The notes under the pieces were generated by a model, which saw only the letters and a program-made list of their open reading frames with translations, was not told where the DNA came from and made no database searches. A stretch of 64,000 nucleotides of DNA from Candidatus Iainarchaeum sp. (GTDB lineage: Archaea; Iainarchaeota; Iainarchaeia; Iainarchaeales; JAZDDZ01), in contig JAZDDZ010000054.1 in NCBI GenBank assembly GCA_043809245.1, positions 1-64,000 of the forward strand. Reading direction: 5' to 3'. A program made the translations under genes and the position numbers. Numbering within the stretch: the stretch's first letter is position 1; each line of letters opens with the position of its first letter. Shown here piece after piece: positions 21,387-40,130 of this stretch.

Positions 21387-21467
21387 CACGAAATGAAAGA
21401 TTCAAGGAGGCAACGCTTTTGTTGCTTTCTTTTCCTTCCATTTTCTTTTATTTTTTGGTGAGCAAGG

Positions 21468-21776
21468 ATGCAGAAGGCAAGAATCAGGCTTACAAGCCCT
21501 GACTACGGAACGCTTGAGGACATAAGCAAAAAAATCCTCGAAGTCGCGGAAAGAACAGGAGTAAAGCACTCCGGCGCAATTCCCTTGCCCACAAAAAAAC
21601 TGATTATTCCAACTCGAAAAGCCCCTTGCGGCGGAGGCACGGAAACCTACGAGCACTGGCAGCTGCGCATACACAAAAGAATGATTGACATTGAAGCCGA
21701 CGAGCGAACGCTTCGCAGAGTAATGCGCGTTGAAATCCCCGAAAACGTCCACGTGGAAATAGAACTCAAAGAATAA
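21468..21776 (+). CDS. rps10: 30S ribosomal protein S10
   Basis: IPLPTK, RKAPCG, RIHKRMIDI. Confidence 0.97.
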   Translation: MQKARIRLTSPDYGTLEDISKKILEVAERTGVKHSGAIPLPTKKLIIPTRKAPCGGGTETYEHWQLRIHKRMIDIEADERTLRRVMRVEIPENVHVEIELKE

Positions 21777-24800: not shown

Positions 24801-25003
24801 TTAGCGCTTCACAAATACAGCTTCTTAATTCAGGCAGCTTCAAGGCAAGGGTTTCGCTTGCAACAGACCCAAGCGTGAAAAAAGACGCGTATTTCTCGGT
24901 TTACACCGCTTCCTCTGTCTCGGTTCCCGAACTGCCGCAGCCTCTTGTACTGCTTGTTTTGATGGTGGTTATGGCTTTAATTTTGCGCGGAAAAAAGCGC
25001 TGA
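21860..25003 (+). CDS. Surface protein: Kelch-like six-bladed propeller, TNAH-repeat domain, PKD domains, Cys/Asp repeats, PEF-CTERM-like anchor
   Basis: Signal peptide; 6x (G)H.AVV.DGKMWV.GG..DVW.S.DG..W; 3x C.D..DNDCD.L.DC.D.DC; C-terminus VPELP + TM + RGKKR. Confidence 0.88.
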   Translation: MKHKRWLLFFLFITVFAINAAADLISWQQSTNTAWDSAKGGHAAVVFNGKMWVLGGSSAAGGPYSNDVWSSVDGITWAKSTITSPSMWDARTSHTAIVYDNKIWVMGGWHGPNDDRSDVWYSIDGSFWTRATQNAPWGERSGHAAVVFDGKMWVLGGTEVSASGTVTYFNDAWWSTDGTNWTQETASAPWGARFGHSAVVYNNKIWVIGGKEQGIDPSVWKKDVWSSSADGTSWAMNSSIGMQGRGELAAVEYDGKMWVFGGYYIPEFSASLSFPRDVWYSTDGTTWARDTSTAGWPGRKDFTALVYSGKIFLMGGVNGSGGADYLRDVWTSNWISGCPDSQRIFRINATTNAHGEQWNLANYSTEICVPAALQAAYVPGATPHACTATNQVVRLYGTTPITNAHGERTQGTTAGYSNVCLGNLQCITRSDSCDPGETCVVKLSDLTNAHFETCSETNYNYFVCCNVPSGPVPNLSAEAGGPYNETTGVLFSLAGAAIGGTPPYNYSWAISPGAGCPASASGQNPSITCTGEGSSTATLTVTDSTASTDTDDAPITVSAPPACTPTETPNELTCNDGFDNDCDTLIDCSDPDCSSASNCISCTPTEVPEITCDDLTDNDCDNLIDCADPDCSTSPACITTCTPTESPNELTCDDGIDNDCDGLFDCGDSDCSSAENCVSNQPPTATLSANQTSGTQPFNVTFDAQCNDSDGTIFSCELDFGDGSAPINIGSGTANVSGSPSHSYNNPGTFNAVLTAVDNQGAIDTDTATIMVSASGTPSCTVILNPNQIETQTGTTSVEVSYLNTSNPTFQVTCGDESSNTPSQTCSSSPCPIGNCGVYTSTGYTNITATTIGGSENANCFERLTISNPGCNDGTFTPATEDCEPGVNETACTGATPECSTITCNCIAASSSDDYILSVTVTPFSVPNDGSSTATVKALLSNNFEINLEILNGVTNQPVAGIPLIAKSPTAAAPKEVEFILSASQIQLLNSGSFKARVSLATDPSVKKDAYFSVYTASSVSVPELPQPLVLLVLMVVMALILRGKKR
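23544..23890 (+). repeat. Three tandem ~40-aa Cys/Asp-rich coding repeats (putative metal/Ca-binding)
   Basis: CTPTE..(N)E.TC.D..DNDCD...DC.D.DCS repeated three times. Confidence 0.8.
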
Positions 25004-25052
25004 AAACCGCCTACAGTAGAATTATATATCTCTTTTAACTACATTTATTGAA

Positions 25053-28000
25053 ATGAAGAAATTATTGCTTGTTTTGTTCGTGTTGCTTGTTTTTCTAGCC
25101 GCGGAAATAAATGCGCAGGAAGGCCACGAGGCAACATGCACTGCGGCAGACCGCGCAAATTTGCCTGGGGCCGGCTTCTGCTATAAATGGGTGAACGGCC
25201 CGGCGAAAGCAGTATTGCTTGGCACGGTTGATTCAGCGGCAGCCTATAGGCAATCAACTGTCCCTGAATTCGGGCAGGTAAAATATTTTTTATTGCCTCT
25301 AGGTCTGCAGGTAAGGTATAAATGCGTTGAGAACGAGCAGACAACAATATTCACTTATCCAGGCCTCTTTAACCCTCCCCTTGACGGAACCCTGATTGCA
25401 TCAAACAGCCCTGAAAAAGAACCTTCAGTAAAACAAATGGACTGTAAAACAACTTACACTCAAGGAGGGTTAAATTATGTTGCGGACGCCAAAGCGCAAC
25501 AGGACAACCCAGGATATTACACGCTAATGTGCGCACAGGACTCAGATTGTTTAGGAGGCCAGGCATGCAATACCTCTTACAGGCATCCAAGCGACATTTC
25601 TTTGAGCCCTTTGCAGTGGAGCTGCATTGCAAATGGCGCGCCGGCCTTTTCAGGCGCACTAAATTATCCTGCAGTTGTAAACATAGGCCAGGAAGCAATT
25701 TTTTCGGCGGAATGGAATGATACGCCTTCATCTGACAGCGTTAAATTGATTGTGAATGACTGTGGTGCTGTTGACTGCATTGCAACTTTTTCCTGCGATG
25801 ACACAGATTATTCAACTTCAAAACCCGCAACATGTTCTGTTACACCCCAGACAGAGCAGGGGATCACAAAAACGCTTTACGCTTTCCTTTGCGACGACCA
25901 GGGGGCGTGTACACCATATTCAGAAAATCCATTTAGCGTCAAAGTTAATCAGGCGCCTGCACCGACACTGGAGCCAACGCAGGCAAGCGGCGAGTCCCCG
26001 TTTACCGTGAATTTCACTGCGACATGCGAGGATTCTGATGGAACAATTTCTTCCTGTGAAATTGCTTTTGGGGACGGAACAAGCCAAACCCTGCAGGCGA
26101 TTGAAACCCCCCAACCTGTAAGCCACACTTACACAAACATGAATGCAACTGCAAAAGAATACACTGCAACCTTGACTGCAACGGATAATGATTCGCAGGC
26201 TTCAACCGCAACTTCAACAATAACAGTCTGGCCGCAGGGAGACAAGCCTCCTGTTGCGGTGCTGCAAATAGTGCCGCCAAGGAATACAAGGGAATTCAAT
26301 GCCGCACTTAATTACAATTGCACTGACCCTGATACAAAAGCGGAATGGGTACTTGACAAGTGCGAACTAAACTACCGCATATTCTACCCCTCAATGCCTG
26401 ATGCTGATGGGAACACATTGAACGGCATTAGCGGAAGTTATATCCAAACTTACAGAAATTACACTGACCTTAATGCAGCGAGAACGCATACTTTAAGGGC
26501 AGTGGATAAAAGTGAAGCCAGCTCTGAGGACACAAAAACAATAACTGTTGAGGCTGAACCGCGCCTGAAAATTGTTCTAGAGTCAGAGCCAAAGGGATAT
26601 GTAAACAGGACTGGTTATTACGCAGGCGAATTCGGAATTTCAATTCCAACGCCTTATTTTATTATCGGCGGAAGCCCCATAAACTTCCACATTGAAAACA
26701 TAAACGGAAAACCCCTGATAAGCGAATACACTGACATTGAGTGGCAGTGGGCTCATGGAACAGGCGACTGGGGCTGGAGTAGTGGTTTGCATGATTCTTA
26801 TGGTGCGGACACAAACACGGGTTTCTTTCCTCCCGCAACAGATGCGGATAGTAGCTGTTCTCTTGCAAGCGCCAACGGAACCCAAACAATGTCTGTAACC
26901 TGCGCCGGAACTTATTTCAAGAAACTGACTGTAAAGGCAAGGAATAAAAATAACAGCGAGTGGGCGCAGGCATCATTCATTTTCCTCATAGAGTATGGCT
27001 TTGGAAAAAAGCCCTTGGTGGAATTCACCCCGACCGCGCAGCAGATGAAAAGCGGAATTGACACAATAAAGTATGACGCAAATTGCGCTCGCTGGCTAGG
27101 TGGAAACAATGCAAACTATGAATCGGAGAGGCTTAGTTCCTGTGAAATAAACTGGCTTATCTGGCCATTGCCGCCGCAGTCCATTCCGATAGTTGACAAT
27201 AACAGTGAATTCAAGTCAGAGGCAATTGCTTTAGGCATTTCAGCGCCTTCGCCTTACAATAATCCGTCAGGGAGCCGCATCCAGCTATTGCACCCCGGTC
27301 TTTATGCATTTAACTATGCCGGAAAGGAAAACTGGTGGGAATCATCAATAAGCGTTCTCCCGAACACAAACATTAAGCCTAAAGCGAAATTCCTGAACCA
27401 TATTACAAGCGCAAGTGTCAATGATGAGGTTGCATTTGAAGCGCAGTGCACTGATTATGATGGGCCGGGAGACATGACTGCTTTGCCAGCGGATTTCTGC
27501 AGCATTGATTACGGGAACGGCACAACCGAGGCAATGAACAAAGTTGTTGACCCATTAGGAGACAATTTTGACTCAGGCATTCTTTCAAGCGAATGGAAAA
27601 CCGAGTCATACTGCGCTTCAGATTCAGCTGAGATTAACGGCGGAAAGCTGGAATTTAATGTGAAATCGAATTGCGGCAGGCTGCCTTTGGGGTATATAAG
27701 CTCTAACCGTGTTACTCGACTTGTCAAGGATGTTAGTGGCGTTGACGAGAACAATTTTGACATTGTCGCAGAAGTCATTCCCTCAATCGATGCATTGATG
27801 GGGAACGCGGCATTTCAATTCCACCAGGGAATTATACTTGAAGAGAACAGCAAGCGCTTTGCATTGCTGGAGGTCAGGAGGGACGTGGACGAAGAAGAGC
27901 AGGTTATACACGACAGGTATTATTTCGAGTTATATGACCTTAATGTTTCAACCAGTTATGGAACCAAAGGCCAATGGCTTGGCTCGGGAAAAATTGCATT

Positions 28001-29519
28001 TCCAAACAACAAGAGCACTTTCCTCAAGCTGTCAAAAAGGGGAAGCATTTTAGCGGCTTACTATTCATCCGACGGAGTTAATTATTCCCTGCTTGGCTCA
28101 ATTGACCTGTGGGAATACACAGTTAAAACCGGATTGCCGTTCAATATAAACAATGCAGGCATATTTTTTGGGAATACAGGAACATCAAATGCAAAGGACA
28201 TTAAAGCCGCATTTGACAACTTGCAAATGGATTTTTACAGTTACAGTGCAACGCACACTTACACCAGCGCCGCAAACCTGCAGGCAAAGGTTTGCGCAAA
28301 CGATGGGGCGGATGAAGTGTGCGATTCACTTAACCTGAGTGTTACCACAGCCGAAAACATCAAGCCCACGGAAACAATAACTGCGCCGGCTGAAAGCGAC
28401 AGGATAAAGGCATTTGATGAGGACATCACAATCAGCGGAAGCGCAAGCGATTCAGACCAGGGGATAGCAAAGATTTGGTGGGAGGCAATTTCAATGCCTT
28501 TGAACTGTTCACTGGTTAATGATTCAGAGGAATTTCCTACACCGCAAACTGACGCAGTAATCAGTTCCACGCTTAACTGTGCTTCTGATCCAACAGCCCC
28601 TGACCTTGTTTACAATGAAGTGGTGTTAGAGCTCCATGCACTTGATGGTGCGGGAGAAGAGCCGCAGCCACTGGAAAGCATTACAATAAAGATAGGAAAA
28701 ATAGGCGAAAATGTGGAAATAACCGGCGTGACTCCTGCGGACCCGAATAAAACAAATAACACTGTTGTTTTTTCATATTACTGCCCCTTGGGTGGATGCA
28801 CAATAACAGGCCAACCGCAAAGCTGCGTTGGATTTTGTGAACCACCGGCTTTTACGCAAAACATCGGGTCGGCTGGACACGGAAGCCTTCTGGGAATATT
28901 TTTTGATTCAGCGAACGATTTTGACTTCAAAATATCAATAACAGGGCAGCAACTGGATGCAGCGGGAGCAAGCTATGAGGTTAATACGGGAACTGATGAC
29001 CAAACAATTCACTTCACTGCAAGCACTGGAACAGGCACTGGCACCACGTACACCAACGACATTCTTGATGTAACCTATGCGTCCACGGACAAGCAGACTT
29101 ATTACGCGAATGGAACAATGAATGTGAGCTTCAAGGTGAAGAATTACGACACTGAAGCGCATAACCAGGATTACGAAATTATTCTGAGGGACATGCGTTC
29201 CCCGCAGATTGAATTCGAGCCTGTAACTGGAACATTTAACTTTGAGCCAGGGGAAAACACGGTTAACAATGCCCCTGTGGTTGACCTTGCAGGCCTTGGC
29301 ATTGCAAAGGGAAGCTATTTTGTGGTAATACACGTTTACGAGGTAGGCATGGGGGAAGACACTGAATTCGCGCCAAATAACACTTATGACGCGCTTTACG
29401 CTGGAATCGTTGACCCCCTGAACACTGTGAGCATTCCCGAGCTTCCATTGTGGTTTGCGCCGCTGCTTGCATTGAGTGCAATGCTCATAGTTTGGTTTAA
29501 AAAGAAAACAAACGCCTAA
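25053..29519 (+). CDS. Large PKD/Ig-domain surface protein with ConA-like beta-sandwich and PEF-CTERM-like anchor
   Basis: Signal peptide; PKD motifs (D.DG.I.SC...FGDG..HTY); C-terminus IPELP + TM + KKK. Confidence 0.85.
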   Translation: MKKLLLVLFVLLVFLAAEINAQEGHEATCTAADRANLPGAGFCYKWVNGPAKAVLLGTVDSAAAYRQSTVPEFGQVKYFLLPLGLQVRYKCVENEQTTIFTYPGLFNPPLDGTLIASNSPEKEPSVKQMDCKTTYTQGGLNYVADAKAQQDNPGYYTLMCAQDSDCLGGQACNTSYRHPSDISLSPLQWSCIANGAPAFSGALNYPAVVNIGQEAIFSAEWNDTPSSDSVKLIVNDCGAVDCIATFSCDDTDYSTSKPATCSVTPQTEQGITKTLYAFLCDDQGACTPYSENPFSVKVNQAPAPTLEPTQASGESPFTVNFTATCEDSDGTISSCEIAFGDGTSQTLQAIETPQPVSHTYTNMNATAKEYTATLTATDNDSQASTATSTITVWPQGDKPPVAVLQIVPPRNTREFNAALNYNCTDPDTKAEWVLDKCELNYRIFYPSMPDADGNTLNGISGSYIQTYRNYTDLNAARTHTLRAVDKSEASSEDTKTITVEAEPRLKIVLESEPKGYVNRTGYYAGEFGISIPTPYFIIGGSPINFHIENINGKPLISEYTDIEWQWAHGTGDWGWSSGLHDSYGADTNTGFFPPATDADSSCSLASANGTQTMSVTCAGTYFKKLTVKARNKNNSEWAQASFIFLIEYGFGKKPLVEFTPTAQQMKSGIDTIKYDANCARWLGGNNANYESERLSSCEINWLIWPLPPQSIPIVDNNSEFKSEAIALGISAPSPYNNPSGSRIQLLHPGLYAFNYAGKENWWESSISVLPNTNIKPKAKFLNHITSASVNDEVAFEAQCTDYDGPGDMTALPADFCSIDYGNGTTEAMNKVVDPLGDNFDSGILSSEWKTESYCASDSAEINGGKLEFNVKSNCGRLPLGYISSNRVTRLVKDVSGVDENNFDIVAEVIPSIDALMGNAAFQFHQGIILEENSKRFALLEVRRDVDEEEQVIHDRYYFELYDLNVSTSYGTKGQWLGSGKIAFPNNKSTFLKLSKRGSILAAYYSSDGVNYSLLGSIDLWEYTVKTGLPFNINNAGIFFGNTGTSNAKDIKAAFDNLQMDFYSYSATHTYTSAANLQAKVCANDGADEVCDSLNLSVTTAENIKPTETITAPAESDRIKAFDEDITISGSASDSDQGIAKIWWEAISMPLNCSLVNDSEEFPTPQTDAVISSTLNCASDPTAPDLVYNEVVLELHALDGAGEEPQPLESITIKIGKIGENVEITGVTPADPNKTNNTVVFSYYCPLGGCTITGQPQSCVGFCEPPAFTQNIGSAGHGSLLGIFFDSANDFDFKISITGQQLDAAGASYEVNTGTDDQTIHFTASTGTGTGTTYTNDILDVTYASTDKQTYYANGTMNVSFKVKNYDTEAHNQDYEIILRDMRSPQIEFEPVTGTFNFEPGENTVNNAPVVDLAGLGIAKGSYFVVIHVYEVGMGEDTEFAPNNTYDALYAGIVDPLNTVSIPELPLWFAPLLALSAMLIVWFKKKTNA

Positions 29520-29526
29520 TTGTATA

Positions 29527-29952
29527 ATGGCATTTGAATGGTTTGACCACCAGGCAGACATAGGCGTTAGGGGCCTAGGTAAAAGCTATGAGGAGGCGTT
29601 CGCTGAGGCAGCGCACGCAATGTTCAGCCTTATTGCAAACCTTGAAACAGTGAAAGCGGATAAAGGCATTGAGGTGAAGGTTAAGGGAAACGAACTGGAT
29701 GAATTATTGGTCAATTGGCTGAACGAACTGCTTTACCTCAAGGATTCCCAGGGAATGGTGTTCAAGGAGTTTCATGTGAAAAGGATTTACCAGAAAAACG
29801 GCTACTTTCACATTGACGCAGTGGCTTTAGGGGAAAAAATTGACTACAAAAAGCATGATTTGAAAAGCGATGTGAAGGCAGCAACCTACAGCGAGTTAAA
29901 GGTTGAAGAAATGAAAGGCGTGTTTTACGCGCAATGCGTTGTGGACGTATAA
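29527..29952 (+). CDS. Archease
   Basis: DHQADIG, WLNELL, VKAATY, VVDV; directly upstream of rtcB. Confidence 0.95.
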   Translation: MAFEWFDHQADIGVRGLGKSYEEAFAEAAHAMFSLIANLETVKADKGIEVKVKGNELDELLVNWLNELLYLKDSQGMVFKEFHVKRIYQKNGYFHIDAVALGEKIDYKKHDLKSDVKAATYSELKVEEMKGVFYAQCVVDV

Positions 29953-29967
29953 GGAAGGGATTGAAGA

Positions 29968-31401
29968 ATGGCTGAATTCAAAAAAATTTCGGAAGGAATC
30001 TGGGAAACTGAGAAAAAGGGAAGCATGCGCGTGCCCGGAAGAATTTTTGCAAGCGACGAATTGTTCAAAGAGATTGAGGCAGGCGCAAAACAACAGCTGT
30101 TGAATGTAGCGGAACTTCCTGGAATTGAAAAGGCTTCTCTCGGCATGCCTGACATGCACTGGGGCTACGGCTTTCCAATAGGGGGAGTTGCTGCATTTGA
30201 TTTGGAGAAAGGCGTTGTGAGCCCCGGGGGCATAGGTTTTGATTTAAATTGCGGAATCCGCTTAATCAAAACAAATTTAGCGGAGAAAGATGTCAGGCCG
30301 AAAATGAAAGAACTGTTCGATGTTTTGTTTTCACTTGTTCCAGCAGGCGTGGGGGAGAAAGGAAAGTGGAGAATGAATGAAAAGGAATTGAAAGAAGTGC
30401 TGAACTACGGCGCGAAAAAAGCTGTTGAGAAGGGCTTTGGCTGGGAAAAGGATTTGGAGCACATTGAAGAGAAAGGCTGCATGAAGGAAGCTAATGCGGA
30501 AAAGGTTTCAATTAAAGCGATTCAGAGGGGAATGCCGCAGTGCGGCACATTGGGCTCAGGAAACCATTTCCTTGAAGTGCAGAAAGTGGAAAAGGTTTTT
30601 GACGAAAAAGTTGCAAAAGTTTTTGGGATGCATGAAGGGCAGATTATCGTAATGCTTCACTCCGGCAGCAGGGGATGCGGGCACCAGATTGCAACCGATT
30701 ACATCGAGGTAATGCTTGGAGCAATGAAAAAGTACGCAATCAGCGTGCCTGACAAGCAGCTTGCATGCGCGCCAATTGAAAGCAAAGAGGGAAAAGATTA
30801 CTTAGCGGCAATGAGCGCGGGCGTGAATTACGCTTTTGCAAACAGGCAGGCAATGACTCATTGGCTGCGCGAAGGATTTGAAAAAGTTTTCAATCAAAGC
30901 GCTGAATCGCTTGGAATGGAACTGCTTTACGACATATGCCACAACGTCGCGAAATTCGAGGAGCACCAGGTTAACGGGGAAAAGAAAAAACTATTGGTGC
31001 ACCGCAAGGGAGCGACAAGGGCTTTTGCAGCGGGAAGAAAAGAAAACCCAAAGGAATTCATGCAGACAGGGCACCCCGCAATAATTCCTGGTTCAATGGG
31101 CACAGCGTCTTACGTGCTTGTGGGAACAGAGAAAGGATTGCAAGAAACTTTTGGCTCGGTTTGCCATGGCGCGGGAAGGGTAATGAGCAGGCATGAGGCA
31201 ATGAAGAGAAAAAGGGGAGAGCAGGTAAAAAAAGAGCTGGAAGAAAAAGGGCAGGTGGTGAAAGGCGCTTCCTGGTCTGGCTTGGCGGAAGAAATGCCGG
31301 AAGCATACAAGGACATTGACGAGGTTATTCGCTCAGTTGAATTAAGCGGAATTGGAAGAAAAGTAGCTAAAATGGCCCCTTTAGGGGTAATGAAGGGGTA
31401 A
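29968..31401 (+). CDS. rtcB: tRNA-splicing ligase RtcB
   Basis: MPDMHWGYGFPIG, DLNCG, GSGNHF, HSGSRG, HRKGATR, HGAGR. Confidence 0.97.
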   Translation: MAEFKKISEGIWETEKKGSMRVPGRIFASDELFKEIEAGAKQQLLNVAELPGIEKASLGMPDMHWGYGFPIGGVAAFDLEKGVVSPGGIGFDLNCGIRLIKTNLAEKDVRPKMKELFDVLFSLVPAGVGEKGKWRMNEKELKEVLNYGAKKAVEKGFGWEKDLEHIEEKGCMKEANAEKVSIKAIQRGMPQCGTLGSGNHFLEVQKVEKVFDEKVAKVFGMHEGQIIVMLHSGSRGCGHQIATDYIEVMLGAMKKYAISVPDKQLACAPIESKEGKDYLAAMSAGVNYAFANRQAMTHWLREGFEKVFNQSAESLGMELLYDICHNVAKFEEHQVNGEKKKLLVHRKGATRAFAAGRKENPKEFMQTGHPAIIPGSMGTASYVLVGTEKGLQETFGSVCHGAGRVMSRHEAMKRKRGEQVKKELEEKGQVVKGASWSGLAEEMPEAYKDIDEVIRSVELSGIGRKVAKMAPLGVMKG

Positions 31402-31464
31402 AAAACACCAACAACAATAACCGCTAGCACGAATTCCAATGGAGTGCTGCAGTTCGGTTCCTGA
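31402..31464 (+). pseudogene. Orphan 3' fragment 1 of the 186..3338 family (KTPTTITASTNSNGVLQFGS*)
   Basis: Hand translation matches C-terminus TKTVSTNSAGVLEFNS* of 186..3338; no start codon. Confidence 0.85.
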
Positions 31465-31493
31465 TTGTATTGAATTTTTTCAAAACAGCAGTT

Positions 31494-31545
31494 AATTATT
31501 GTTTTTCAGAATATATTTATAAACTTTTTCTGAAATATAATAATT
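31494..31545. promoter_or_regulatory. 18-bp inverted repeat (16/18) flanking TATA box TTTATAAA; candidate operator
   Basis: AATTATTGTTTTTCAGAA (31494-31511) and TTCTGAAATATAATAATT (31528-31545) bracket 31516-31523. Confidence 0.7.
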
Positions 31546-31564
31546 AATTATTAAAGGCGGCTTT

Positions 31565-33211
31565 ATGCATAAAACATTGATAAAAAACCTGATTTCAGAA
31601 GGGCAAATAACGCCAGGCATGGCGATTAAAGATAAGGCCATTTCAAGCTACACATATTACAGCACGGTTAAGGAACTCGAATCGCTTGGCATAGCTTCAA
31701 CTAAAGACAGCAAGACAGTTTTATCCGACAGCCTAGTTACCGCGGTTTTCAAGAAACTGTTTTTTGAAGGCTTCGACATAGAACTGCTTTCAAAGAAAAA
31801 CGTTAAACTTCTCCTGCTTTTACTGGAGCCAAAAACACTCAATGAACTATCTGAAGAGTACGGGCTTTCCGCCGCCCAGGCAAACAAAAGAGTGTCAAAA
31901 TTCTCGCAATTTCTGGGCAAAGAAGGGAACAAATATGCGCTCTCAAAGTCTAACCCCTTGCTATTTGAATTCATCTCCCTCATTCAAAAAAAGAGCAATG
32001 AAGAATATTTCTGGTCAAAGGGGGAAGAGAAACTACTCAAACTTCCACTTGACTTTGAGTTTGATGGAACGCTCACGGGATTTTCGAGGTTCAGCGAATT
32101 TGGCCTTCAGATAAACCCGTCACACAATTTTGTATATGTGCCAAAAAAAGAACTGCTATTGGAAGAAATATTATCACATGCAATAAAATTTTCGGCAAAC
32201 GCAAACGATTTAGTGTTATGCATATTATTTTACCTGAAAAACAAGCCAAAAATAAATGTGATTGAGATTGAAAAGAACTGCGAAAAACTTGGCGTCCTGC
32301 AACTCTGGTTCGACATTGTATCATACTTGGAAGAACAGCCGGTAAGAGAGGAAAAAATGTTCCTCCCGGGGAAAGAATTCCTCGCAAAAGCAGCTGTTTA
32401 TGACATCCAAACCAAAAAAAGATACGGCCAACAAACCTTGGACAGCATTTTCCATAAAGCCGAAGAAAAACTCCTGGAAAAAGTGAGAATCTTTCTGATT
32501 GGGGGAAACGCACTCATAGAATATAAAGCAAAAAACTCTACAAAAGACATGGACCTTGTGCTGCTAACGCAAAAAGAGGCTGCTTCATTCATTAAGGCAC
32601 TGGAAGAAACCGGATACTCGGAAATAAAGGGAAAAGAACTGCAATACGGACAACTCGAAGCCTCGGCAATGCTGGAGAATGCTGATTCGCCGCGCATAGA
32701 CTTGTTTGTGAGGGTAGTTTGCAACGCCCTTGAATACAGCGAGCGAATGCAAAAAAGGAGCAAAAAAATCAGTGACGGCAAACTGGAAATATACTTGACA
32801 TCACTTGAAGACATTTTCCTTTTAAAAAGCGTTTCTGCAAGAGATTCTGACCTCGTTGACTGTGAAAACATTCTTTCAAAAACAACATTGAACTGGAAAA
32901 TAATTTATGACGAAATAATTTTACAGGACAAGAACCTTTCAGGAATGAAAGAAATGATAATACTTGACCACCTTGAGGCGTTAGAAAAAAGGCTCTCAAT
33001 AAAAATCCCGGTTACAAAAAAAGTCCTGAGCCTGTGCCTTGAAAAAAGTATTCTATATCTAGCAAAAAAACCCATAAGCGCGAACGGCATAACCCGGAAA
33101 ATCGGTTTCCCGAAAACAACAATCAGGAACAAAATAGCTGGACTTGTGAAAAAGAAAAAACTCAAAAAAATCAAAGAAAAACCGTTTAAGGTCGTTATAG
33201 TCAATAATTAA
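31565..33211 (+). CDS. Multi-HTH protein fused to a nucleotidyltransferase (DUF6036/AbiEii-like)
   Basis: IFLIGGNAL..STKDMD NTase motif, DLF, K..S.R..D..D; HTH-like segments at both ends. Confidence 0.75.
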   Translation: MHKTLIKNLISEGQITPGMAIKDKAISSYTYYSTVKELESLGIASTKDSKTVLSDSLVTAVFKKLFFEGFDIELLSKKNVKLLLLLLEPKTLNELSEEYGLSAAQANKRVSKFSQFLGKEGNKYALSKSNPLLFEFISLIQKKSNEEYFWSKGEEKLLKLPLDFEFDGTLTGFSRFSEFGLQINPSHNFVYVPKKELLLEEILSHAIKFSANANDLVLCILFYLKNKPKINVIEIEKNCEKLGVLQLWFDIVSYLEEQPVREEKMFLPGKEFLAKAAVYDIQTKKRYGQQTLDSIFHKAEEKLLEKVRIFLIGGNALIEYKAKNSTKDMDLVLLTQKEAASFIKALEETGYSEIKGKELQYGQLEASAMLENADSPRIDLFVRVVCNALEYSERMQKRSKKISDGKLEIYLTSLEDIFLLKSVSARDSDLVDCENILSKTTLNWKIIYDEIILQDKNLSGMKEMIILDHLEALEKRLSIKIPVTKKVLSLCLEKSILYLAKKPISANGITRKIGFPKTTIRNKIAGLVKKKKLKKIKEKPFKVVIVNN

Positions 33212-33223
33212 GAAGGCGGAAAC

Positions 33224-33688
33224 ATGGGCTGGTACGGCGTATTTTTGGTCCCGAAACTGAAGCTGTGCTTCTACTTAAGAAGCGTTGACCAAGGCGTTCT
33301 TGAATCGCATTTCGAATCTCTGGACAGATTTTTTGACAAGCATGACAAGCTAAAAGAAGACAGCCCCCCCACAGATTCAAGTAATGTTTACACTTCAGGC
33401 TACTGCTGCTCAGGAACATGGCAAACAACAAGCTGCACACCCGCTCAGCAATGCACAGTAAATATAGCAACGCCGTGCACGATTTCAATTGCAGGAGGCA
33501 CAATCAATTCCTGCACACAGCAGAATCTCATCTACCAATACAACGCAACGACAACAGTGAACAACACAGTCAACGGATTACAAGCAAGCAAAGCATACAA
33601 CATCAAAATAGAAAACACGACAACAGGGGCAACACAAAACAAAACTGTAAGCACCAACTCTGCGGGAGTGCTGCAGTTCAGCAACTGA
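33224..33688 (+). pseudogene. Chimeric ORF: 46 unrelated N-terminal residues fused to orphan 3' fragment 2 of the 186..3338 family
   Basis: From ~33362 aligns with 3009..3338; last 89 aa show 16 differences; no signal peptide. Confidence 0.8.
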
Positions 33689-33712
33689 AGCGCGTGATGC
33701 CTGAGCCCCTAT

Positions 33713-33756
33713 AATAGTTTCCTTTTTTTAAGGAAACTTTTTTAAATAGTTTCCTT
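33713..33756. promoter_or_regulatory. Repeated operator-like motif around TATA box of ATPase gene
   Basis: AATAGTTTCCTT at 33713-33724 and 33745-33756, inverted AAGGAAACT at 33730-33738, TTTTTAAATA between. Confidence 0.65.
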
Positions 33757-33768
33757 CTAAGTTATGGT

Positions 33769-35085
33769 GTGGTTTTCATGGTTTCCTTTGACAACTGGGT
33801 TTCTGCCATAAAGGATTTTCATTCAAAAGAGCTTCCTTTCATTGTTCCAAGGGATTACTTTTTTGACCTTAACCTGCCCTTAAGGCGGGCCTATTCAGTA
33901 ATAGGGCCAAGGCGCGCAGGGAAAACCTTCGAATTGTTCCAGATAATCAAATCCTTAAAGGACCAAGGCTTAATGAAGCAGTGCATTTATGCAAATTTTG
34001 AAAAACCCGGGTTTGAGTTCCTTTCAGCCAAAGACCTTGAGGAAATGATGAATGCTTTTTATTTCCTTTACCCTGAAAACAAAAACAAGCAGGCATGGCT
34101 TTTTTTGGACGAAATACAGAACGTCAATGGATGGGAACTGTTCGTTAGGGAACAACTGGATGAAGGGCTCAAGGTATTCATTTCCGGTTCATCCTCCAGA
34201 ATGCTCAGCAGCGAGGTAGCCACCAGCATGCGCGGCAGAACCCTGCCAAAAACAATTTTTCCTTTTTCCTTCAAGGAATACCTCAGGGCAAAAGGGATTT
34301 CCCTGCAAAAAGGCCTGTCATCATCGGAAAAAGCATTAGTGCTAAACCATTTTTCCGACTACTTCAATTACGGCGGTTACCCTGAAGCAGTAATTTATCC
34401 CGCCGAAAGGGAAAACATTTTAACGGAAATAGGGAAAACCGTTGTCCTAAGGGATGTGGTGGAGAGAAAAAAAATAAAAAACCCAGAAGCACTTAACAGG
34501 CTGGTTGAAGGGCTTTTTCACTCAAAAGAATTTTCAGTCAATAAGTTTTACAAGCATTTGAAATACCTCGGCGTAAAGACAAGCAAGGATTCCCTTTACG
34601 CATACCTGGGCTATTTAAACGAGGCTTTTTTCGCCTTTACCCTGAAAAAATTTTCCTTTTCCTTAAAGAAATCAGAGCAATCAACGCCCAAAATTTACTT
34701 CATTGACAACGGCCTGCTTAGAATACGCGGAATTCACGACAAGGGAAGGCTTCTGGAAAACGCAGTATTCATTGAACTCCTGCGGCGCGGAAAAGAACTC
34801 GCCTATTACAGGACAGATTCAGGCACCCTTGAAACCGATTTCATTGTAAAAAAAGACAACCATGTAACAGAAATAATCCAGGCATGCTACGATTTAAGCG
34901 AACCAGAAACAAAAAAAAGAGAACTAAAAGCACTGCTCAACGCAGGCAAAGAATTCAACTGCAAAAAACTCTCAATAATCACATTCGACTACACAGCCGA
35001 AGAAACACACAAATTCGAAAAAACCAAATTTAAAATAAAATTCATTCCCCTCTGGAAATGGCTATTGGAAAACAAAAAGGCATAA
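33769..35085 (+). CDS. AAA+ ATPase (AAA_14) with C-terminal DUF4143 domain
   Basis: Walker A GPRRAGKT, Walker B LFLDEIQ, SGSSS, GGYPE, KIYFIDNG, ETDF..IQ. Confidence 0.9.
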   Translation: MVFMVSFDNWVSAIKDFHSKELPFIVPRDYFFDLNLPLRRAYSVIGPRRAGKTFELFQIIKSLKDQGLMKQCIYANFEKPGFEFLSAKDLEEMMNAFYFLYPENKNKQAWLFLDEIQNVNGWELFVREQLDEGLKVFISGSSSRMLSSEVATSMRGRTLPKTIFPFSFKEYLRAKGISLQKGLSSSEKALVLNHFSDYFNYGGYPEAVIYPAERENILTEIGKTVVLRDVVERKKIKNPEALNRLVEGLFHSKEFSVNKFYKHLKYLGVKTSKDSLYAYLGYLNEAFFAFTLKKFSFSLKKSEQSTPKIYFIDNGLLRIRGIHDKGRLLENAVFIELLRRGKELAYYRTDSGTLETDFIVKKDNHVTEIIQACYDLSEPETKKRELKALLNAGKEFNCKKLSIITFDYTAEETHKFEKTKFKIKFIPLWKWLLENKKA

Positions 35086-35099
35086 ATAGGGGAAAGCAC

Positions 35100-35360
35100 G
35101 TACGTGTTTAGCTCTGTAGGCTCGCGAGCATTTGTTTGTATGGGTTGAGTCCTCTTTGTTCCCATGTCGCTATCAAGCTGCTGAGTATGTCGTGGTTGCG
35201 GGTTCCTTTTACATTTCTCAGGCACCCGTAGATTTTGCGTTGAACCACGGCTTCACGCAACGCCCGTTCCGCGCGGTTGTTTGTGGGTTCGATTTCTGGG
35301 CGTAAAATGAATGTGAACCAGTGGTTGTCGCCATTGCGGATTTTTTCAACGAATTTTTCA
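35100..35360 (-). mobile_element. Truncated IS66-family transposase 3' end with probable right terminal repeat
   Basis: PTNNRAERALREAVVQRK..SLIATW..RGLNP IS66 motif; GTACGTGTTTAGC at 35100 resembles IS66 ends. Confidence 0.82.
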
Positions 35361-35387
35361 AGCGGAGCACTGAAGTTCAGCACATAA
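35358..35387 (+). pseudogene. Orphan 3' fragment 3 of the 186..3338 family (SSGALKFST*)
   Basis: GGAGCACTGAAGTTCAGCACATAA vs GGAGTGCTGCAGTTCAGCAACTGA (end of 33224..33688); short, at the IS truncation point. Confidence 0.6.
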
Positions 35388-35504: not shown

Positions 35505-35855
35505 ATGGATTCCCGCAAACTAGCTTTAGTTTTAGGCGTGGCGCTTTTGGCTTTTGTTTTTCTGGATTCCAGCGCCTCAGCAACACCATATTATGTTATG
35601 GGCTCCGCGACTTACGTGAGGGGCGCAGCAGACTATTATGCTCCAACTGTAAATGTTTACTCAAGCCCGTATTATTACCCTTCTTACGGCTATGGAATGG
35701 GCTACATCAGCTATCCTTATCGCGGTGACACCTATTGGAAGTTCGACCCATACGCAGGCTTATACCCTATGAGGCCGGCAAACGTGTACATGCCTTATTA
35801 TCCGTCCCCTTCAATGGGCTCAGGCTATGTCATGGCTGCATATTACTACAATTAA
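35505..35855 (+). CDS. Small secreted Tyr-rich protein
   Basis: Signal peptide; 24 Tyr in ~90 mature residues; TATA TTTATATA upstream. Confidence 0.75.
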   Translation: MDSRKLALVLGVALLAFVFLDSSASATPYYVMGSATYVRGAADYYAPTVNVYSSPYYYPSYGYGMGYISYPYRGDTYWKFDPYAGLYPMRPANVYMPYYPSPSMGSGYVMAAYYYN

Positions 35856-35903: not shown

Positions 35904-38114
35904 ATGAACAAAATAATTTTTGCCCTGGCTTTTTTCTTTGTGATTTTTTTAGCCTCGGCTGTTTGCGCTTCAAGCAACTGGTATTTGGGAATCAGTTCGC
36001 ACGGCGCAACAATAGAGGTATTCAAGGGCAATGCCTGGCTTTCGTTTGGAACGCCTTACGACTATTACTATAACGACTGGTATTTCTTCCAGCAGCCATG
36101 GCGCTATAATTACGCAGGAAACTGGGTGAACTATGATTCGGGGTGGTACAATTTTGGCGCTGACTGGTTTTACAGCCCCTACTCCTACAACTATTATTCG
36201 CCGAGCTATTACTATCATTCAGGGGGCTGGAATTATTCGCCTTACTGGTATTCTGACCCTGGAATAACGCTTTACTACAACAAGTATTACCCTTACTACG
36301 ACCCGGTAATTGTTCCGCAGTCGCCTTACTATTACGGCGGCGGAGTATCATACAACCCTGAAAAGCTTGCAGGCTGCTCGGAGATAAGCCTTTCCGCGGA
36401 AAACGCTTTCATCAATGCGGGAACAACTGAAAACGTTGAGCTGAAAATTCAGAACAATTCAACGCAAGATTTTAAGGTTTCCTCAATTGACGCGTACATC
36501 CCTTCATTTGATGTGGAAAAAAGCGGGCTTGACTACGGCTCAACTGTTAAGGCAAAAACAACCGCAAAAGTTTCACTTGATTTAAGCGCCTCACAGGCAT
36601 CGGAAACCCAGAACTTCAACGCAAAATTCAAGGTTTCAGGAAGCTTTTCCGACGGATTGACTTACTGCAGCTACTCAGATATAGGAGTTAAGGAATTCAA
36701 TGTGCAGGTAAACGAAGCAAGCAAAGCCGCTAAAACGCAAAGTGCGGGGACAACTTTTTCAGCAAGCCAGCCAAGCGCTTACGCAATTGTTTCTCCATCA
36801 ACCGCTTCCACTGCAAGCAACACATGGCAAAGCGTGGAACCGGATGCGCCGAGCAACGGAATACAGCAGGCCGAGCCACAGCAGGAAACCGCTTTCTTCC
36901 AAAGCAACTGCAATGGCCTGGCAATCGCAACAGAAGGAATCTCGGTTGAATCAGGGGGAATTGCCAAAAAGAATTTTTTGCTTAAAAATTTCGGCGCGGA
37001 AAAATTCTACATTGATTCCGTTGAAGTGAATGGCAGTTCCGGCAAATTCGGCGTTGCGCCGTCCTATTCGCCTTCATTTGTTTTCGCGGGCTCGGAATCG
37101 CTGATAGGCGTGGCGGTTTCAGCGGAAAGCGTTGAAAGTGACGCTGTTGGAAGCGCAACAGTAAAGGTCAAAGGGCATTACGCTGGCGGGGTTTACTGCG
37201 AGGCGGGTCCCGAGGAGTTTTATGTTTTTGTTGAGGCTGTAAAAAAGCCGGCTTGCCCTAATGTTTCCATTAAAACACCCGCAACAGTTGAGGCTGTAGG
37301 AACAGCAGCCGCGTTTTCATTCACAGCGGAAAATTCAGCTGACAGGCAGGCAATTGTTTCATTGAGCGGAAAAAATTTGGATGTTGAAAACAATTCATTT
37401 GCAATTGCGCCGAACACGGTTGCCGAAAGGGCTGTGCTTGCGGAAAACCTTTCCGCAGAAGCGGGATGGGTTATCTTCTCAATCTCGGTTCCTGGCAGTG
37501 GATGCGAATATCTCCAAAAAACCACAAAAATACTTGGCGAAAAAAAAGCAGAAGCGCAGGGGGAAGGCCCAGGATTGGTGGAAGGAATTGAGCTTGTAAG
37601 CTTCACTGAAAGAGCGGACATGAATAACTCTGCGCTGATTGAGGTTGTTTTGAAAAACAATTCAGCGGAAAACGCAAATGTTTCGCTTGGCATTAAGGGT
37701 TTGCCTGAAGGGTTTTATGTTAGGGGCATTGAAAGCGTGCTGCCTTCAGGGGCAAGCCGCTCTTTTTTCATTGAAGTGAAAACAAACAATGCGCAGAAAG
37801 GCCTTTCAACAGGAATACTTGAAGTGGTTTCAGGGGAGCGCGTTTTTGAAAGGGGCGTGCAATTCAATGTGCTTGGCGGGATAAGCATTGAAGAGCCGGA
37901 GGAAGGCACAGGGGAAACCGCTGACCAGAACACGATAATCGTTCCACTGCAGAAAATTGCGGCAAGCGCTTTTGCGGTTCTTTCAAATAATTCGCTTGCA
38001 TTAGGAGTTCTTGTCTTGGCTATACTTGTTATTGCACTGCTCTATGTTAACGCAAAAGAAACAGAAAAAGACATGAAGAACGCGGAGAAATGGCGCGGCA
38101 GCAATAAGGAATAA
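35904..38114 (+). CDS. Membrane-anchored surface protein with Tyr/Trp-rich N-terminus and Ig-like domains
   Basis: Signal peptide, Y/W/S/P-rich first ~130 aa, repeated beta-sandwich-like units, C-terminal TM. Confidence 0.8.
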   Translation: MNKIIFALAFFFVIFLASAVCASSNWYLGISSHGATIEVFKGNAWLSFGTPYDYYYNDWYFFQQPWRYNYAGNWVNYDSGWYNFGADWFYSPYSYNYYSPSYYYHSGGWNYSPYWYSDPGITLYYNKYYPYYDPVIVPQSPYYYGGGVSYNPEKLAGCSEISLSAENAFINAGTTENVELKIQNNSTQDFKVSSIDAYIPSFDVEKSGLDYGSTVKAKTTAKVSLDLSASQASETQNFNAKFKVSGSFSDGLTYCSYSDIGVKEFNVQVNEASKAAKTQSAGTTFSASQPSAYAIVSPSTASTASNTWQSVEPDAPSNGIQQAEPQQETAFFQSNCNGLAIATEGISVESGGIAKKNFLLKNFGAEKFYIDSVEVNGSSGKFGVAPSYSPSFVFAGSESLIGVAVSAESVESDAVGSATVKVKGHYAGGVYCEAGPEEFYVFVEAVKKPACPNVSIKTPATVEAVGTAAAFSFTAENSADRQAIVSLSGKNLDVENNSFAIAPNTVAERAVLAENLSAEAGWVIFSISVPGSGCEYLQKTTKILGEKKAEAQGEGPGLVEGIELVSFTERADMNNSALIEVVLKNNSAENANVSLGIKGLPEGFYVRGIESVLPSGASRSFFIEVKTNNAQKGLSTGILEVVSGERVFERGVQFNVLGGISIEEPEEGTGETADQNTIIVPLQKIAASAFAVLSNNSLALGVLVLAILVIALLYVNAKETEKDMKNAEKWRGSNKE

Positions 38115-38405: not shown

Positions 38406-40130
38406 ATGCGCGGAAAAAAGGTTTTTTTGGTTTTATTCTTTACAGCATTGCTTTTGGCAATTGCCTCTGCTGACACTTACCGCATTACAATAACGCCTCA
38501 AGCCGCAGTGCCTGACATAACCCCGCCAGTGATTTCCAGCGTGGCTTCCTCTTCAGTTGACCGCAATTCAGCGGTTATTACCTGGGCCACAAACGAGTCC
38601 TCTGATTCAAACGTGCTTTACGGCAAAACAAGCGCAAACAAGAACCAAAGCAAATACTCTTTAACCATGGTTTTATCGCATTCAGTTTCCCTTACTTTGC
38701 TGGATGCAAACACCACTTATTATTATGCGGTCAAAAGCTGCGATGCAAACCATAACTGTGCCACTTCAAGCGAAAGCACGTTTAAGACAACAAGCTGTTC
38801 AGTCGGGCGCATTCTCTGCGGCAGCACATGCGTATTGCCTGCATGCAATGTGAACAGCGACTGCCCAAGCGACAACAACAGCACGACAACAGAGGTATGC
38901 AACAATCCAGGAACTTGCACAGCGTCCTGCGCGTCAGTGCCGCTACAGGCATGCCCTTCGGGAACAGCAATCAGCGCGCCATGCAGGTGCGGAAGCACAA
39001 TAATAAGCAGCGGATTGTGCTGCAGCGGCACCCCAAAAATTCCCTGCACAAATGCCTCGGAATGCAATGACAATGATGTTTGCACAAACGACTCCTGCCT
39101 TAACCCGGGAACATGCAGTGCGGCTTGCACTAATGCAACGGTTCCAAACTGCGTTCCACCACCAGTGTGCGGGGATGGAACATGCAGTGGAGGCGAAACT
39201 TGCTCTTCCTGTTCCAATGACTGCGGGGGATGCCCTGCAACACAGGTTTGCGGTGACGGAAGCTGCAGCGGAACAGAGGACTGCTCTTCATGCTCTAGCG
39301 ACTGCGGCTCCTGCGGAACAGGGCCTGGCGGTTCGCCCGGTTCAAGCACTGGAACAGTTGCGCGTTGCGGCAACGGCTTGTGTGAAAGGGGCGGAGGAGA
39401 GAACACGCTTAACTGCCTTATTGACTGCGGAAACCAGAATGTTTTGGCGCAAATGGACAGCGACAATGACGGAAGCACTGCTGACAAGGACTGCGATGAC
39501 AAGAATCCCGCTGTAAAGGAATGCACTGGCTGCATGATCTGCAAAAAGAATGCCTGTGTTGAAACCGCTGCATGCGGAAATATTTCTTTGGATGACTCTG
39601 ATGGGGACGGCTTGACCAATGCAAGGGAAGCCGAACTAGGCACAAATCCCAATGAAATTGACTCAGACAAGGACACTGTTAGCGACGGACAGGAAGGCCA
39701 GGACGGAACAGACCCCTTGGATGAAACAAGCAACCTTGTGAGGGTGCATGCTTTTGGAATAATAGATGTTAATGCAGTGCAGCAAATAACTTTGTCACAC
39801 CCGAAAACAGGGAACGTGCGCGGATTTTACGTTGACATAATTTCGCCGAGCGGAAGGATTTTCCATTTGCAGGCGGAGGATGACACTATAAGCTTTACGG
39901 TTAGCGAGCCGGGAAAATACATTGTGAAAGCATACAAGGAAGGGTTAAAGGATGAGACAACTTTCACTGTTAAAAAAGAAGGCGAAGTTGTGTTGCCTGG
40001 TTTGCCAGGGCAGCCGCAGACAATAGCGCCTTGGTGGCTGTTTGTCTTGCCGGTTATTTCAGCGGCGGTAAGCGCAGCGATTCTTTACGGCTATCTGGTC
40101 AGAAGGAAAAGGCTTGCGGGACAGGGATAA
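38406..40130 (+). CDS. Surface protein: FN3-like domain, Cys-rich repeats, thrombospondin type-3-like Ca repeats, C-terminal TM
   Basis: DITPPVIS..W.TNE.SDS; CGDG.CS..E.CSSC..DCG.C x2; DSDGDGL.N..E...GT.P...DSD; TM + RRKR. Confidence 0.85.
   Translation: MRGKKVFLVLFFTALLLAIASADTYRITITPQAAVPDITPPVISSVASSSVDRNSAVITWATNESSDSNVLYGKTSANKNQSKYSLTMVLSHSVSLTLLDANTTYYYAVKSCDANHNCATSSESTFKTTSCSVGRILCGSTCVLPACNVNSDCPSDNNSTTTEVCNNPGTCTASCASVPLQACPSGTAISAPCRCGSTIISSGLCCSGTPKIPCTNASECNDNDVCTNDSCLNPGTCSAACTNATVPNCVPPPVCGDGTCSGGETCSSCSNDCGGCPATQVCGDGSCSGTEDCSSCSSDCGSCGTGPGGSPGSSTGTVARCGNGLCERGGGENTLNCLIDCGNQNVLAQMDSDNDGSTADKDCDDKNPAVKECTGCMICKKNACVETAACGNISLDDSDGDGLTNAREAELGTNPNEIDSDKDTVSDGQEGQDGTDPLDETSNLVRVHAFGIIDVNAVQQITLSHPKTGNVRGFYVDIISPSGRIFHLQAEDDTISFTVSEPGKYIVKAYKEGLKDETTFTVKKEGEVVLPGLPGQPQTIAPWWLFVLPVISAAVSAAILYGYLVRRKRLAGQG

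Follow-up and report, generated by a model that had tools for sequence, protein, structure and literature searches.

The window analyzed here is a 64-kb stretch of DNA, the first 64 kb of contig C54 (JAZDDZ010000054.1) in a 1.48-Mb assembly of Candidatus Iainarchaeum sp. (55 contigs, 91.8% complete), and it contains an island, downstream of rtcB, in which accessory genes are separated by three orphan 3′ ends of one family of secreted proteins. The genome as a whole carries 12 intact secreted PL14-like genes and five such stubs; the members share a C-terminal domain (CTD) with hardly any other occurrence in public data, are homogenized by recombination, and are interleaved with genes for candidate defense ATPase-nucleases. 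The nearest named relatives of the RtcB protein belong to 'Candidatus Iainarchaeum' metagenome-assembled genomes (MAGs) of DPANN archaea (65–80% identity). With their small genomes, these archaea rely on contact with other cells or with polymers, which lends interest to the way in which they renew their secreted and surface proteins. In the following, C20, C24, C27, C44, C48, C49, and C54 denote contigs of the assembly (G000), G027 denotes another genome of the same order, and L025–L087 denote related rtcB loci.

The left anchor of the island is an intact rtcB gene (29968–31401, + strand; Pfam PF01139, E = 3.5e-177) preceded by an archease gene (29527–29952, + strand; PF01951, E = 1.7e-42) that is syntenic in relatives. 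The C terminus of RtcB, ..PLGVMKG before the stop codon, agrees with the C termini of its relatives. Fragment 1 (31402–31464, + strand) translates to KTPTTITASTNSNGVLQFGS followed by a stop codon. Clear homology to the family covers 31416–31464, corresponding to the last 48 nt and the stop, and the upstream part (31402–31415) is A/C-rich and ambiguous, so that the fragment may extend to 31402 with an internal gap. A palindrome of 28 + 28 nt (31492–31547; 82% complementary, no spacer) lies upstream of a gene for a DUF6036 nucleotidyltransferase (NTase; 31565–33211, + strand), in which HVO_2833_C-like and TrmB-like helix-turn-helix (HTH) regions were both weak and below the Pfam cut-offs; the palindrome may be the operator of this HTH-NTase gene. 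The NTase gene is followed by the start of a small gene (33224–33355, + strand; the first ∼44–46 codons, with full-length relatives of ∼120 aa), which is cut by its junction with fragment 2 (∼33354–33688, + strand). Fragment 2 comprises the last ∼335 nt of a family gene, including the whole CTD, and is joined in frame to the small-gene start, giving a chimeric open reading frame (ORF; 33224–33688) that finishes with STNSAGVLQFSN and a stop codon.

The next gene (33769–35085, + strand) encodes an ATPase in which an AAA_14 domain is followed by DUF4143 (PF13173, E = 6.5e-32; PF13635, E = 2.8e-20; PADLOC candidate defense gene PDC-S01, E = 6.3e-102), an arrangement that places it in COG1373/PDC-S01. 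Its stop codon is overlapped by an 18-nt stub of the promoter/5′ untranslated region (UTR) block of the family (35084–35101, + strand), whose homology to the intact loci on C20 and C49 stops at 35101. An IS66-family remnant (35102–35363, − strand; ORF 35108–35383) then matches positions 227–283 of 284 in PF03050; the end of the transposase alone is left, and 35102–35363 is a remnant and not a complete element with a full DDE transposase, accessory ORFs, and inverted ends. Fragment 3 (35363–35387, + strand) consists of the last ∼24 nt of a family gene and its stop codon, with 35358–35387 reading SSGALKFST plus stop. The right anchor of the island is formed by the genes for a Tyr-rich small secreted protein (35505–35855, + strand) and a 736-aa secreted protein (35904–38114, + strand), the latter with homologs after rtcB in six of seven related loci. 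The GC content of the island is 0.35–0.44, compared with 0.45–0.50 in the flanks. A previous description of this DNA, made from the letters alone (the sequence-only reading), was accurate in this respect: the letters and coordinates it gave for the fragments were recovered on re-reading (31402–31464, the end of 33224–33688, and 35358–35387), and its account of RtcB and the cargo (an HTH-NTase gene, an ATPase, and a truncated IS66) agrees with the Pfam matches, which are weak for the HTH and give AAA_14 + DUF4143 for the ATPase.

Synteny of the rtcB locus

All window ORFs of at least 110 aa were compared with seven related rtcB loci. Four of these (L027, L028, L043, and L087) have the order archease, rtcB, homolog of the 35904 gene, and homologs of the genes at 40389 and 41569, and in two more (L025 and L026) rtcB is followed by a 35904-like gene; the distant L031 has only rtcB in common with the window. 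Weak matches to the Tyr-rich protein of 35505 were also located downstream of rtcB in L025, L026, and L027. The NTase, the ATPase, and the CTD are absent from all seven loci. Because rtcB leads to homologs of 35505 or 35904 in six relatives, the stretch from 31402 to ∼35400 is, as judged by gene order, an insert specific to this lineage, and the 35505 and 35904 genes, to which fragment 3 is attached, are by the same criterion the ancestral neighbors of rtcB. Relatives of the NTase (57–58% identity) occur on three metagenome contigs in other contexts, with no neighbors in common with the window. Viral contigs yielded no close relative of the locus.

The secreted protein family and its orphan 3′ ends

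The intact family member of the window (186–3338, + strand) encodes a protein of 1050 aa with a signal-like N terminus, two PL14-like regions, fn3 and Big_7 domains, and the shared Cys-rich CTD. A genome search with the 99 C-terminal residues of ORF 33224–33688 gave 15 matches, comprising the ends of 12 open frames (619–1222 aa, 69–88% identical), fragment 2 itself, and two weak internal matches. All 12 intact members have a signal-like hydrophobic N terminus, as judged by eye, and the domains found in the family are PL14-like, Big_7, fn3, PKD, malectin, and galactose-binding-like. PL14 matches were present in eight of nine proteins examined, in addition to the protein of 186–3338, with the best-scoring stretches listed spanning only positions ∼128–215 of the 215 in the profile.

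The shared CTD (∼98 aa, Cys-rich) is matched by no Pfam or NCBIfam model. A search of 5.8 billion proteins found it in 10, of which nine are apparently this assembly's own and the tenth, a JGI protein, is 51% identical; within the same order (40 genomes), it was found in G027 only, with 13 more divergent matches. The G027 copies likewise finish with ..NSxGxLxF, two residues, and a stop codon, and this terminal motif is consequently a feature of the protein and not a DNA site as such. The AlphaFold model of the CTD is poor (mean predicted local distance difference test score of 58, with the first 52 residues below 50); it gave no match in the PDB at E ≤ 0.001 (Foldseek), and the ESM Atlas returned no usable match to the domain. 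A limited literature search, outside supplements, found no paper that deals with the family, with an alternation between DUF4143 genes and genes for secreted proteins, or with stubs of this kind in Iainarchaeota.

The whole 1.48-Mb genome was scanned with a 48-nt nucleotide profile (nhmmer) built from the 12 intact 3′ ends and with a second, 297-nt profile of the CTD. Fragment 1 (31417–31464) was recovered with E = 5.7e-13 by the 48-nt profile and occupies positions 249–297 of the 297-nt profile, and fragment 2 was recovered by the latter with E = 4.5e-83, the onset of homology lying near 33354. Fragment 3 (35363–35386) had E = 7.6 with the 48-nt profile (rank 31, with 14 unrelated matches scoring better), which, taken alone, is chance level. 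The sequence-only reading had allowed that its short fragments might be chance matches; this applies to the score of fragment 3, and fragment 1 lies far above it.

The case for fragment 3 comes from its context. The conserved 3′ end motif of the ATPase genes occurs four times in the genome, followed by a family gene in two cases, by a 45-nt stub in one, and by the promoter stub, IS66 remnant, and fragment 3 of the window in the fourth. On C20 and C49, the ATPase end leads through a 36-nt spacer with the family promoter/5′ UTR block into a full family gene. The presence of this block after the ATPase stop codon in the window thus indicates that a family gene formerly stood there, and fragment 3 is supported, despite its E-value, because the promoter/5′ UTR stub and the IS66 remnant precede it. 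By our own arithmetic, ∼0.002 background matches of its score would be expected on the + strand of the 403-nt gap. Moreover, an independent repeat search grouped all three island ends as one direct-repeat family. The identification of the fragments as orphan 3′ ends of one secreted-protein family was therefore upheld, by the profile scores for fragments 1 and 2 and by context for fragment 3.

Comparison with the paralogs also agreed with the earlier description of the fragments as co-oriented, mutually different, and ending at the family's stop codon, where homology to the paralogs halts. The repeats measure 24, 48, and 335 nt and, over a 28-nt stretch, are only 71–75% alike. The stubs derive from different paralogs; each is distinct from the others and from the gene end on its left, and they are thus not fresh duplications of one site. 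The junctions are located at about −335, −48, and −24 relative to the stop codon, and to their left they cut unrelated DNA (the rtcB flank, the small gene, and IS66). Two of them, as had been proposed, truncate the preceding gene, namely the small gene at fragment 2 and IS66 at fragment 3. The first 46 codons of ORF 33224–33688 resemble the N termini of proteins of 59–122 aa (54–66% identity), with eight matches besides the ORF itself at E ≤ 0.001, and all six that were inspected align from or near the N terminus, indicating that a real small gene was cut.

Throughout the genome there is an alternation of family genes with AAA_14/DUF4143 ATPase genes, the latter very divergent. The layout is family gene–ATPase–family gene on C20, ATPase–family gene on C49, and family gene–ATPase–stub on C44, which also begins with ATPase–stub, and both C54 and C24 terminate in family gene–ATPase. 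Five of the nine ATPase genes sit between family genes or their remnants, counting contig-end halves as two genes, and the other four are not adjacent to family genes. Pairwise identity among the linked ATPases is 24–34%, which makes them no more similar to one another than they are to the four unlinked copies; nonetheless, three of the linked ATPases have identical last ∼21 nt. A 17-nt motif was noted within ∼21 nearly identical nt near the ATPase 3′ ends (C20:7327–7362, C44:605–640, C49:77856–77891, and window 35047–35085; proteins 27–34% identical). The common ends suggest that conversion tracts from the 5′ flank of the family gene extend into the ATPase gene. Elsewhere, one of the unlinked DUF4143 ATPase genes has a tyrosine recombinase gene directly upstream (C27:7685–9976).

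The genome-wide scan with the 3′-end profile, which the sequence-only reading had suggested in a simpler form, revealed two further stubs outside the window, both on C44. The first (C44:647–694, E = 1.3e-8) starts shortly downstream of an ATPase stop codon, at a distance of a few bases: the first 6 nt of the spacer pass directly into the 45–48-nt stub, whereas the near-identical ATPase copy on C49 (98% at the amino acid level) is followed by a full gene. The second (C44 ∼11970–12004) had E = 1.7e-5 with the 48-nt profile and 0.075 with the 297-nt profile, and follows an ATPase gene that itself follows an intact family gene. The only remnant of a 5′ end is the 18-nt promoter stub in the window.

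Recombination among paralogs and the origin of the stubs

Tests of recombination on 11 aligned CTDs revealed a mosaic, in which 960 of 1891 pairs of informative sites fail the four-gamete test, adjacent sites are incompatible less often than when the order of sites is shuffled (1000 permutations, p < 0.001), and the closest paralog differs segment by segment along the domain. On this evidence from alignments, the family recombines frequently between paralogs, and heavily at the 3′ end. In two pairs of paralogs (C20_8720/C20_4204 and C49/C48), near-identity extends to an A-rich tract ∼48 nt before the stop codon and then collapses.

The stubs with their kinds of junction, the layout of the arrays, the synteny, and the mosaic structure of the CTDs are observed features, and the reading that we favor, with a probability of roughly 0.6, is that the island is a decayed tandem array of family genes alternating with ATPase or other genes, in which three independent deletions left 3′ stubs on their native downstream DNA. 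As family gene–ATPase–family gene is the usual layout in this genome, decay of such an array is the simpler reading. The array (family gene–X–family gene–ATPase–family gene) would have arisen in this lineage between rtcB and its ancestral neighbors at 35505 and 35904, and its three family genes would have lost nearly their whole length by separate illegitimate deletions. The first gene may have been deleted from just past the rtcB stop codon to ∼48 nt before its own stop, and of the second, only the last ∼335 nt would have been spared by a deletion that also took the remainder of the small gene before it. At the third, IS66 would have inserted into the 5′ UTR before a deletion ran from inside the insertion sequence to ∼24 nt before the stop codon. 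Each stub would then be trailed by the DNA that had always been downstream of that gene. That every stub ends at a stop codon follows from the homology among paralogs, which ends there in the intact genes as well.

From these features we infer deletion rather than insertion at the junctions, the sequence in which the events took place, and the reason for the bias toward very short 3′ stubs. Two causes of the bias appear feasible. The A-rich tract may pair with the A/T-rich promoter immediately 5′ of the gene, ∼9 of 10 bases being common to the tract and the promoter box; alternatively, the edges of dispensable DNA may survive in a streamlined genome where neighbors constrain both sides. Should the stubs mark a preferred recombination boundary, they would represent a simple, recombinase-free means of gaining and losing whole surface-protein genes, and if they are only debris, the island would still be a clean example of deletion shaping a streamlined archaeal genome.

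Several points weigh against decay of an array. Deletions that strike at random would not be expected to produce stubs this short. All five stubs retain the extreme 3′ end, and four of the five retain only 24–48 nt of genes of 1.9–3.6 kb; the chance of five stubs all being ≤335 nt is ∼2e-5 by our own arithmetic. The genome-wide profile scan found no internal CTD fragment, and the corresponding scan with a 5′ profile found no signal-peptide stub. The two stubs of 45–48 nt start at positions 248 and 249 of the 297-nt profile, within the same A-rich tract, and derive from different paralogs. Two stubs and two paralog pairs have the boundary at −48 in common, with an uncertainty of ∼15 nt owing to the low complexity of the tract. 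This coincidence suggests a preferred recombination boundary, which plain decay does not predict. In addition, the assembly is broken at ATPase and IS66 repeats, that is, at repeats of the type found in the island, and the direction of the events, deletion or insertion, is not readable from one genome, on which all inferences about the history of the stubs rest.

The island also resembles the outcome of serial displacement, in which new modules would enter at the rtcB side via the conserved 3′ end and push the old 3′ end with its downstream genes to the right, as happens to orphan toxin tips in Rhs/CdiA loci; here this is an unlikely origin. It would explain why the stubs are co-oriented with each carrying its own downstream DNA and why the rightmost is attached to the ancestral neighbors of rtcB, and the CTD is a proven recombination substrate. 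A C44 stub also has a base variant in its A-rich tract that is otherwise found only in the gene after the sister ATPase on C49. However, no full-length gene heads the array, fragment 1 abutting the rtcB stop codon directly, and a 3′-end anchor would leave family sequence to the left of the stubs and not unrelated truncated genes. The promoter stub after the ATPase, moreover, shows that the third gene had a complete 5′ end in place. Of the variable surface-protein locus anchored on rtcB that the sequence-only reading envisaged, the lineage-specific stretch and the heavy recombination at the 3′ end stand, and the ordered series of allele replacements was not shown.

Orphan toxin-tip/immunity arrays downstream of rhs and cdiA genes (e.g., PMC3967940) are like the island in having co-oriented gene-end fragments of one family, each with its own downstream gene, and their biology includes homologous recombination of the fragments with the main gene. 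There, the orphans are the variable end, with part of the conserved core in front of them and an immunity gene as partner, whereas the orphans of the island are the conserved end. The island further lacks a full gene at its head, and its downstream genes are unrelated and partly truncated. As the orphans are the conserved C-terminal end and the downstream genes encode an NTase and an ATPase, the island was not classed with Rhs/CdiA-type orphan modules.

Homology-guided cassette exchange is likewise improbable. According to this explanation, the body of a gene, bounded by its promoter and the A-rich tract, would be transferred between loci, converted, or lost, with the last ∼48 nt staying behind as fixed docking stubs, so that the rtcB island would be a row of emptied docking sites. 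The left arm would be the promoter/5′ UTR block, sometimes with the last ∼21–35 nt of the upstream ATPase gene, and the right arm the CTD up to the A-rich tract; the ATPase-nucleases might make the breaks, in a homing-like manner. DUF4143 is listed among PD-(D/E)XK domains (PMC3424549). The −48 boundary described above fits this explanation, as do two loci with the same downstream ATPase (98% at the amino acid level) that are near-identical only from ∼25 nt before the stop codon, and ATPases that, at 24–34% identity, nevertheless have the same last ∼21 nt followed by the family promoter. However, the low complexity of the A-rich tract blurs the boundary itself, and lower conversion near a repeat edge would be expected without any special site. 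G027, which has the CTD, lacks a DUF4143 gene, and four of the nine ATPases lie away from family genes. If cassette exchange did operate, it would be a system that varies the surface-enzyme repertoire of a DPANN archaeon.

Integration into the end of a gene usually leaves copies of that 3′ end as direct repeats around accessory genes, and tandem integrative elements or integron-like cassettes using the 3′ end as att would leave an island of this general appearance; in addition, one integrase gene, on C27, adjoins an ATPase gene. This origin is very improbable. The genome has six matches to the tyrosine recombinase model PF00589, none of them on C54, and neither a serine recombinase nor a reverse transcriptase (PF00078, 0 matches) was found in the 91.8%-complete assembly. 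No conserved hairpin was found in the last 60 nt, where the RNAalifold consensus of the 12 ends is −1.57 kcal/mol with five weak pairs. The repeats are unequal and diverged, as given above, and the cargo is truncated at the junctions. A cassette system using the 3′ end as its recombination site, the other possibility raised by the sequence-only reading, accordingly found no support: to the missing recombinases, reverse transcriptase, and hairpin are added three different junction distances, one of them at a junction that follows insertion of IS66 into the family promoter.

The same results separate the island from several known arrangements. Integron cassette arrays consist of accessory genes separated by short repeated sites in one orientation, and the island is like them in having accessory genes between short co-oriented repeats; it is unlike them in that the contig has no integrase and no hairpin site, the genes at the junctions are truncated, and the sites vary in length. 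With neither an IntI-type recombinase beside the array nor hairpin attC sites, an integron was rejected. Where tandem elements occupy a gene 3′ end or dif site, as in att duplication at tRNA genes or in IMEX arrays, a copy of the target 3′ end bounds the inserted DNA on each side. The island shares this repetition around accessory DNA; unlike such elements, it lacks the target gene, its repeats differ in length and sequence, and the contig has no recombinase. An integrative element with att in the gene 3′ end was rejected on these grounds (repeats unequal and 71–75% alike, no recombinase on C54, no serine recombinase in the assembly), and a diversity-generating retroelement was rejected because no reverse transcriptase was found in the assembly.

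Pseudogene remnants and concerted evolution are also features of the paralogous surface-protein families of reduced genomes. The family and its island are like these in that conserved ends enclose a variable middle, copies undergo gene conversion, and lost copies have left remnants, and unlike them in the strong bias toward very short 3′ stubs with a common boundary and in the regular alternation with divergent DUF4143 ATPases. An assembly artefact, consisting of chimeric joins at repeated family sequence in a MAG of 55 contigs with breaks at ATPase and IS66 repeats, is highly unlikely, since a join at a repeat would leave family sequence on both sides and not rtcB, the small gene, or IS66 on one, each stub's sequence is unique in the assembly, and five such junctions on two contigs would be required.

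Other features of the window and related loci

The IS66 remnant of the window has no near-identical copy in the genome and is therefore not datable. A different IS66 transposase piece, with the same 34 residues each time, terminates many contigs (C3, C7, C10, C17, C18, C20, C30, C47, C51, and C53), indicating that breaks in the assembly are caused by an IS66 element present in many copies; the window's remnant belongs to an older IS66 than this contig-end element.

In three of the related loci (L027:3207–6152, L028:3207–6152, and L043:2502–5432), rtcB is split after about residue 95 by ∼1.5 kb, which is possibly an intein, and the rtcB gene of the window is uninterrupted. To the right of the island, an ORF of 574 aa (38406–40130), situated between the 35904 and 40389 genes, is without a counterpart at that position in the related loci. 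On the other side of archease–rtcB, 21860–29519 encodes a pair of very large proteins (1047 and 1488 aa) that are secreted and carry membrane anchors at the C terminus; the flanking genes are that at 21402–21752 and archease. The two flanking genes are 0.1–1.6 kb apart in L026, L028, L043, and L087, and from this spacing 21860–29519 looks like a second lineage-specific insert.

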